From IMG/VR virus record IMGVR_UViG_2721755662_000004: a DNA stretch of 64,000 nt. The stretch is one strand, 5' to 3'. Numbering within the stretch: position 1 is the first letter of the stretch; each line of letters begins with the position of its first letter. The DNA is from a virus (lineage: Duplodnaviria > Heunggongvirae > Uroviricota > Caudoviricetes). Below are positions 16,768-17,433 of this stretch, in pieces. The notes beneath the pieces are model-generated. The model saw nothing but the letters and a program-made list of their open reading frames with translations, was not told where the DNA came from and did not search any database. A program made the position numbers and the translations under genes.

Positions 16768-17433
16768 ATGGCTGTTCAAATTTCTGTCGAAAACCTTTCC
16801 CCTGTTACCTATAACCAGATCCCCGTAATTACTACTGAACTGTTGGCTCACCTTTACGGAACAAAAATCAAAAACATTTCTGATAACTTTCTGAACAACA
16901 CGACGCGATTCATGCCCGGAAAGCATTACTTTAAAATTGAAAAAAACGAATTACGCGAGTTTAAGAACAGACCCGAAACAATCGGGTTAGTTGGTAAAAA
17001 TGCCCGCTCCCTCATCCTCTGGACAGAACGCGGCGCAGCCCGTCACGCAAAAATGCTCGAAACCGATCGGGCGTGGGAGGTATTCGAAAAACTGGAAGAC
17101 TGCTATTTCAGCCAGGGAAAAACAGCACCAACCGAACAGCAGCCGCAGATTCAGCCACAATTCACAGCCGAAGAAATCATCCTCCTTTGCTACATGCAGC
17201 TCTGGATGGAAAAAGCCCAGGACATCAGCAAACACCTGTATCCCATTATGAAAGAGCTGAACTCCTCATACACGAACAAGCTGTATGACATTGCGTTTGA
17301 GACCATCTACATGGTGACGAAGAACAGAGACGCGCTACTGAGGGAGGTAACACGTCTCGACATGTCAAGTTCCGTTATCCAGCGGGCCATGCCAATGCTG
17401 AAAAGCCTGCGGGCAAGACAATTTGAATTCTGA
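16768..17433 (+). CDS. ORF6N-domain antirepressor-family protein
   Basis: N-terminal ORF6N signature ([19 protein letters not shown]); C-terminal about 95 aa identical to the AntA-type protein at 60883..61512. Confidence 0.65.
   Translation: MAVQISVENLSPVTYNQIPVITTELLAHLYGTKIKNISDNFLNNTTRFMPGKHYFKIEKNELREFKNRPETIGLVGKNARSLILWTERGAARHAKMLETDRAWEVFEKLEDCYFSQGKTAPTEQQPQIQPQFTAEEIILLCYMQLWMEKAQDISKHLYPIMKELNSSYTNKLYDIAFETIYMVTKNRDALLREVTRLDMSSSVIQRAMPMLKSLRARQFEF

Follow-up and report, generated by a model that had tools for sequence, protein, structure and literature searches.

A P22_AR_C-coding module present twice in inverted orientation in a lambdoid prophage of Escherichia coli

The P22AR_C, ORF6N and related domains of the Bro network were reportedly first described by Iyer, Koonin and Aravind in 2002. 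This network of domain-swapping proteins includes ANT, AntA, Bro-N, ORF6N and P22_AR_C, and the C4/isrK immunity RNAs are linked to it (PMC10111431). The window analysed here, a stretch of 64 kb of lambdoid prophage DNA, was found to contain the same Pfam domains, the same head-tail architecture, several paralogues per phage, heads re-assorted on a common tail and the C4/isrK RNAs, and nothing essential was found to be different. To this the window adds a tail module conserved at 96-100%, breakpoints at the start of the domain and at the stop codon, and variants with gain or loss of a cassette. Domain and cassette shuffling in the Bro network is already known as a kind of event, and the two genes considered here are annotated in RefSeq with these domains.

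Control of the P22 ant gene is exerted by Mnt, Arc and sar and does not involve C4 or Xcc1-type leaders. In induced phi24B, a reporter of the late promoter pR′ was reported to be expressed differently once ant had been deleted, and it was proposed that Ant contributes to efficient induction (PMC3064807). The genes of the window resemble P22 Ant and phi24B Ant in the P22_AR_C tail, and the fourth cassette of the window has the head of the phi24B ant locus, its leader type and its location in the nin region, whereas the tail carried by the two repeat arms belongs to a divergent P22_AR_C subtype, 21% identical to the canonical copy of the window, and its activity is putative.

The immI region of P1/P7 (c4 antisense RNA, icd and ant) and the CI RNA module of P4 are matched in the window by the promoter of the arm-A cassette, followed by a1/b1, a terminator, a C4 RNA and then directly by an antirepressor-like ORF. 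They differ from the window in that the arm-A ORF encodes an ORF6N-P22AR_C protein and not P1 Ant1/2, and in that the leader of the arm-B cassette is of the sRNA-Xcc1 family. The arm-A cassette and the second ORF6N cassette would, judged by sequence, fit the P1/P7 immI design with a C4 RNA upstream of ant.

Lambda Red recombines diverged sequences efficiently and can explain mosaicism (Martinsohn et al. 2008, PMC2327257). The window shares with lambdoid mosaic exchange a conserved segment in unrelated flanks, sharp transitions at functional boundaries and Red-type recombinases; the cross-genome identity of the module had a median of 95.3%, and its transitions to the flanks were found to be sharp. 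In contrast to an intergenic linker, the segment of the window is a protein domain inside genes, and exchange at it therefore makes new chimeric proteins. The invertase systems Hin/Gin/Cin/Pin (e14, Mu, P2-like) likewise have inverted repeats within a prophage, and inversions driven by homology have been reviewed together with them (PMC4272514). The short crossover sites, the adjacent serine invertase, the segment of 1-5 kb and the occurrence of both orientations in nature, by which these systems are recognised, were all absent from the window.

With a probability of about 0.85, the repeat is read here as one protein-coding module that is present twice and circulates by domain and cassette shuffling, not as a DNA device. 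This reading is carried by the domain identities, the cassette anatomy, the sharp boundaries, the combinatorial distribution and the variants with gain or loss of a cassette that were observed in the window and its relatives.

The prophage and its inverted repeat

The window was found to be identical to positions 2471186-2535185 of the chromosome of E. coli FORC_069 (NZ_CP023061.1) except for the length of one G-run (G9 vs G8, 62089-62097), the sole difference over 64 kb; this homopolymer lies close to attR, where the third Xcc1-like element has its 3′ edge. The lambdoid prophage is integrated in ynfG of FORC_069-like E. coli strains. The nearest phages were the Stx-converting 933W/phi24B-like phages, and the window itself contained no stx genes. 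The left end contained the minus-strand genes int, exo, bet, gam and recE, followed by the repressor gene at 8794-9501 (−), cro, cII, the replication genes, the nin region and Q. A nanS-like esterase gene and the lysis genes were present after Q, followed by the virion block with terminase, an N4-gp56-type capsid, the tail fibre and an 8.3-kb LPD38 gene. The block at the right end, on the minus strand up to attR, contained DUF551, Ea22-like, DUF4752, TraR, BRO, Ant and the AntA remnant. The recombination genes encoded by the prophage were those for Exo, Bet, Gam, RecE, NinB and RusA.

Other features were also recorded along the prophage. A 49-nt repeat was present three times (10333-10381, 10424-10472 and 11196-11244, 63-100% identical) in or just upstream of a replication-initiator-like gene (10503-11585) and may be related to the origin. 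The nin region contained an addiction-type cluster (14477-16488) with hok/sok (sok RNA of 110 bits, 14477-14651), a Fic/Doc toxin (15200-15694) and a RelE/ParE toxin with an HTH antitoxin on the minus strand (16488-15745), and a second Hok/Gef gene was found in the late region (about 44591-44731). An STnc100 sRNA (21441-21646, +, 165 bits in Rfam) was found between Q and the nanS-like esterase gene of this stx-negative prophage, the position at which stx sits in Stx phages. The tail fibre gene (36458-38473, 671 aa) contained dense imperfect 9-nt-phased repeats of the collagen-like Gly-X-Y type (37143-38070, +). The virion block ended with a single ORF of 2,784 aa (47992-56346, +), annotated as an LPD38 protein, a large polyvalent protein with an HExxH-like motif.

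In the repeat search over the 64-kb window, two inverted arms of 278 nt were found, arm A at 17152-17429 (+) and arm B at 60887-61164 (−), which were 99% complementary with 43,457 nt between them. In base-by-base alignment, 274 of the 278 positions were identical (98.6%, four mismatches). The first-pass annotation, made from the letters alone, had described a near-identical inverted repeat of about 280 bp with one copy in the nin region and the other at the right end, and this was confirmed. It had named a precise alignment with much lower identity as a possible refutation; the identity stayed at 98.6% over the arms, and over its own interval of 17152-17433 at 97.9% (six mismatches in 282 positions). 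Its count of one mismatch was thus too low, and the far end of its second arm, placed at 61160, was corrected to 61164. The alignment register pairs 17152 with 61164 and 17433 with 60883. The mismatches on the 5′ side of arm A were found at 17157 and 17172, followed by a perfect core of 251 bp (17173-17423) and by the 3′ mismatches at 17424, 17427, 17430 and 17432, which fall in the stop codon and the three codons before it. The longest match expected by chance in 64 kb would be shorter than about 20 nt, which the exact match of 251 nt far exceeds. Homology between the arms was found to drop sharply 5′ of about 17146 and 3′ of both stop codons. All six differences were synonymous and each arm encodes the same 93-aa segment, which points to selection that maintains the two copies.

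Arm A is the P22AR_C-coding 3′ part of an ORF6N gene (16768-17433, +; 221 aa, RefSeq WP_000290554.1), located in the nin region immediately ahead of ninB, and the full shared module covers 17146-17433. Arm B is the P22AR_C-coding 3′ part of an AntA gene (60883-61512, −; 209 aa, RefSeq WP_000211519.1) at the right end of the prophage, with 93 aa identical to those of arm A. Pfam domains and annotation agreed with the earlier assignment of the arms to an ORF6N gene in the nin region and an AntA gene at the right end. The P22_AR_C domain (PF10548) was found with 30.7 bits in the ORF6N gene and 29.4 bits in the AntA gene, at a cutoff of 22.4, and occupied the C-terminal third of both; the ORF6N and AntA heads in front of it are unrelated. 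The heads of the arm-A, arm-B and BRO genes were recognised in Pfam with 73.1 bits (ORF6N), 93.6 bits (AntA) and 44 bits (Bro-N), respectively. The repeat is bounded on one side by residue 127 (nt 17146), with which the Pfam P22_AR_C match opens, and on the other by the stop codon. Both arm genes were assigned by PHROGs to 'anti-repressor Ant' families, and from this annotation and the data on the related phi24B Ant both products are putative antirepressors.

Further members of the same group were found in the prophage. The third paralogue, detected by Pfam and by the repeat search, was a Bro-N + P22AR_C gene (59996-60628, −), and the fourth P22AR_C cassette (18078-19035, +) contained a leader at 18078-18299 with promoter, a1/b1, isrK-like element and C4, followed by an ORF6N + canonical P22AR_C gene at 18352-19035. 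An AntA-only remnant (61780-62046, −), annotated as a pseudogene without the C-terminus, and a Rha/KilAC gene (19110-19832) were also present, so that four P22AR_C genes, a Rha/KilAC gene and an AntA remnant were counted in one prophage. Between the tail of the BRO gene and the arms, identity was 81% in the first ~125 nt of the tail (60165-60289) and 62-63% across the whole module. At its 3′ end (~17410-17468 in arm A), the BRO copy was found to match arm A fully through the final ~14 coding nt and the stop codon and, bar one base, through the terminator, and the repeat search paired 17384-17460 of arm A with 59969-60045 of the BRO copy at 81% overall.

In the fourth cassette, the head and the leader type matched the phi24B ant locus and the tail was a canonical P22_AR_C. 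The ORF6N heads of the two nin genes form a direct repeat (17005-17115 and 18595-18705, 95%). Direct repeats on the plus strand at 16509-17115 and 18094-18705, about 1,586 nt apart, covered the C4-type leader and part of the ORF6N head with identities of 92%, 79% and 95%. The two nin cassettes have heads and leaders in common and different tails. The identity of the arm-type tail to the canonical copy of the window was only 21%, and its P22_AR_C E-value was about 1e-7, vs 4e-24 for the phi24B-like copy. The arm-type C domain is a divergent P22_AR_C subfamily, and because of this divergence its partner may be other than that of P22 Ant. The single-sequence AlphaFold model of the protein had a mean pLDDT of 35 and was unusable, and the PDB sequence search found no solved homologue up to an E-value of 1.

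Cassette anatomy and leader RNAs

The promoter, leader-RNA and hairpin calls given here are pattern matches and denote predicted elements. The leader of the arm-A cassette (16493-16714, +), located by Rfam and promoter pattern match, was found to begin with a promoter-like site TTGACA-18-TATATT (16493-22, +), followed by the C4 target sites a1/b1 (16516-68, +; c4-a1b1 of 47.4 bits, gathering score 46.7), an isrK-like element with a terminator (16529-16603, +; isrK of 74.3 bits) and the C4 antisense RNA (16630-16714, +; 75.1 bits, gathering score 45). The same order of a1/b1, isrK-like element and C4 RNA was found ahead of both ORF6N genes (16516-16714 and 18101-18299), above the Rfam gathering scores. 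A terminator-like hairpin with a T-run was present directly after arm A (17438-17457, +), and the segment of about 40 nt behind the stop codon (17434-17471) likewise follows the BRO copy and, in other phages, copies at the right end.

The leader of the arm-B cassette (61553-61784, −) contained a promoter-like site TTGACG-18-TATACT (61784-61755), followed by an RNA of the sRNA-Xcc1 family (61638-61553), which was found in Rfam with 73.4 bits in place of a C4-type leader. The leader of the BRO cassette (60670-60874, −) begins 9 nt past the arm-B stop codon and contained a promoter-like site TTGACA-18-TATATT (60874-60845), followed by an RNA of the sRNA-Xcc1 family (60759-60670, 67.7 bits). A third sRNA-Xcc1-like element (62172-62088, −), which precedes the AntA remnant, scored 49.9 bits, under the gathering score of 53. 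The promoter-like sites at the start of each leader matched 10-11 of 12 consensus positions.

The three sRNA-Xcc1-family elements are in tandem on the minus strand, each with a near-consensus promoter on one side and an AntA or Bro-N gene on the other, and occupy the position held by the C4 RNA in the nin cassettes; this position suggests that the Xcc1-type RNAs serve antirepressor cassettes as leader or immunity RNAs. Each arm gene thus appears to be a self-contained cassette of a promoter, a structured leader RNA and a two-domain ORF. The prophage was found to contain five cassette units, six Bro-network genes and two kinds of leader RNA, of which the P1-type C4 was present on two cassettes and the Xcc1-type on three.

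The nin region, including the arm-A cassette, is part of the rightward early operon. From the coordinates, the minus-strand genes of the right end would sit downstream of int across attP in the excised circle, and they would therefore be co-oriented with the leftward early operon. The arms are inverted and 43 kb apart because one cassette is located in the rightward early operon and the other among the leftward genes. Each cassette follows the direction of its local early operon, which accounts for the inverted orientation and requires no inversion event.

The antirepressor tail is not the only sequence common to the two early-operon arms (nin region and right end), since repeats in DUF551 genes also match between them. 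This second set of inverted repeats (13715-14276, +, and 56652-57378, −) was found to contain segments of 139 nt (90%), 147 nt (79%) and 45 nt (78%) and lies in two DUF551 genes (13536-14180 and 57476-56748).

Distribution of the module among phages and genomes

A scan of IMG/VR with the 93-aa module gave 80 loci, onto which the heads, tails, leaders and flanks of the window were mapped. In the 53 distinct proteins from these loci, the P22_AR_C domain was above the gathering score in every case, and the heads on the module were recognised in Pfam as AntA (30), ORF6N (17) or Bro-N (6). The tail was found at 88-100% nucleotide identity behind different heads, and the heads flanking it were 70-77% identical or not alignable across the loci. 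The ORF6N heads on the tail included the arm-A type, the phi24B type and several variants only 71-76% identical to these. The heads of the AntA side included the AntA head, the head of the AntA remnant of the window and further AntA variants, and the Bro-N head was also found on the tail. The head of the remnant was found to be intact and joined to the same C module in two viral contigs (L030 and L044). The tail was followed by ninB, by the arm-B flank with the BRO cassette, by traR or by other DNA, which gave at least three downstream contexts.

The match between the arm-A gene region and phages such as phi24B, Min27 and Stx2a_F451 was found to end at 17115, the boundary between head and tail. 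Arm A itself is chimeric: up to 17423 it equals arm B, and between about 17410 and 17468 it equals, bar one base, the BRO copy's 3′ end with its terminator. In the complete genomes of E. coli, the module was present in 193 of 5,426, in 267 places and with at most two per genome. Only 2 of the 49 phage records carrying the module contained two copies, and the remaining 47 contained one.

In E. coli AST198 the order was found to be ORF6N, module, arm-B flank with Xcc1 leader, BRO head, module and ninB, all in the nin region. E. coli TOE17 contained the same prophage at the same ynfG site with the AntA module directly ahead of traR and the BRO cassette absent, and the contigs L016 and L028 likewise contained the AntA module straight before TraR without the BRO cassette. 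The TOE17 prophage (L085, NZ_CP069093.1, 2456000-2492000) is a decayed relative in which the terminase is truncated and all virion genes are deleted, as a separate deletion. AST198 and TOE17 differ by the gain or loss of a whole cassette at the modules.

The proposal of the first-pass annotation that the two copies mark past domain shuffling was strongly supported by these results, as the repeat runs from the start of P22_AR_C to the stop codon and the same module was found on AntA, ORF6N and Bro-N heads. The module encodes the 93-aa P22AR C-terminal domain, is followed in most copies by the terminator of about 40 nt, and forms the tail of two Bro-network antirepressor-like genes with the unrelated heads ORF6N and AntA. 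Its near-identity would come from its passage around the 933W/phi24B-like gene pool as a strongly conserved segment. Homologous or homeologous recombination in or at the edges of the tail and terminator probably re-assorts heads, tails and whole cassettes, and the exchanges may be catalysed by host RecA or by the Exo/Bet/RecE/NinB of the phage. The proteins may act as antirepressors or as modulators of induction. The weakest point of this explanation is the division of roles, in which the C domain would be the common effector or partner-binding part and the heads and leader RNAs would give different specificity or control.

Alternative origins and biological meaning

Recent gene conversion between the two copies within the prophage lineage (concerted evolution), in place of the import of a conserved module, is an unlikely source of the near-identity. 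The perfect tract of 251 bp is bounded in arm A by BRO-type positions (17172 and 17424-17468) unlike those of arm B, which resembles a conversion patch, and pairs at 97-98% were present in other genomes too. However, arm A was found to be nearer to AntA-linked copies of other viral contigs, at 99.3% for L016 and 98.9% for L062, than to the arm B of its own prophage (98.6%), and ORF6N-linked vs AntA-linked copies across genomes reached a maximum of 99.3% around the median of 95.3%. The pairs within one genome ranged from 63% to 98.6%, and those in other contigs from 63% to 97.8%. When within-genome and between-genome identities were compared over the IMG/VR loci, no systematic excess of within-genome similarity was found for the module, and concerted evolution is therefore unnecessary for the repeat. 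The copies sampled lean towards grouping by locus or head and not by genome. A recent intragenomic conversion would be possible and is not required; the module appears simply to be highly conserved in the 933W/phi24B-like phage pool.

It is very improbable that the arms act as the substrate for inversion of the 43-kb segment between them, giving two prophage isomers and possibly a switch. This segment extends from ninB through Q, the lysis genes and the virion genes to the right-end genes up to BRO. A homology of 278 bp with a perfect core of 251 bp is enough for RecA or Red recombination, and the six recombination genes named above are carried by the phage itself. The exchange would damage neither gene, since the repeat stops at the stop codons and both ORFs would be intact afterwards. 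The predicted junctions were an ORF6N head, module and BRO leader on one side and an AntA head, module and ninB on the other, and both were built as chimeric queries from the window. The AntA-module-NinB junction was found in none of the 5,426 complete E. coli genomes, which are consensus assemblies, as no match covered at least 80% of the query. The ORF6N-module-BRO junction was found in two of these genomes, AST198 and 06-00048 (88% identity), in colinear nin regions only. Both were rejected as inversion products, AST198 for its colinear order of ORF6N, BRO and NinB and 06-00048 because its match lists the same genes. In AST198, BRO is followed by ninB in colinear order, and the two cases are therefore cassette insertions and not inversions. 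No inversion junction and no AntA-module-ninB arrangement was found in the 80 IMG/VR loci, and every ORF6N-module-BRO with visible downstream sequence continued into ninB.

All close relatives of the prophage were found in the parental arrangement and none in the inverted one. No site-specific invertase was present beside the repeats, and the PGAP annotation of the whole prophage contained no invertase, only the tyrosine integrase at the left end. The repeat is also not a conserved requirement of the architecture, as many relatives contained one copy only (47 of 49 phage records) or a pair just 63-92% identical. After inversion, Q and the late operon would be severed from pR, so that the isomer would probably be defective. 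The earlier suggestion that the repeats could drive inversion of the whole late region thus found no support in the 5,426 genomes and 80 viral loci, which were without the inversion junction pair. Low-level isomers driven by homology within a culture would be expected of any 278-bp repeat. It is slightly less probable still that a rare RecA/Red inversion in lysogens gives a viable isomer, with Q and the late operon off pR and, after excision, on a leftward pL-int-attP-AntA transcript. If true, the rare inversion would change inducibility in a heritable and reversible way, with two intact antirepressor genes as its parts. In a literature search, no report of inversion through antirepressor repeats was found for lambdoid phages, only general papers.

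An assembly artefact or chance similarity as the source of the repeat can practically be dismissed, because both loci with their unique flanks were found, 100% identical over their full length, in four complete E. coli genomes assembled independently (FORC_069, FORC_043, FORC_029 and NCCP 13905), both versions of the module, each with its own 3′ synonymous variants, recur in IMG/VR contigs, and an exact match of 251 nt is too long for chance. In the fifth assembly, NCCP 13983, junction B matched at 100%, and the gene order was unchanged at junction A, where the match was affected by the joining of blast segments.

The repeat, taken as one tail module carried by two antirepressor-like genes, has a practical side, as repeats like arm A and arm B can confuse the short-read assembly of Stx-like prophages. 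It offers a clean case, resolved at the nucleotide level, of phages of the Shiga-toxin type that build regulator chimeras and move whole antirepressor cassettes. The presence of multiple cassettes and two kinds of leader RNA in one prophage may bear on induction and on prophage cross-talk in pathogenic E. coli.
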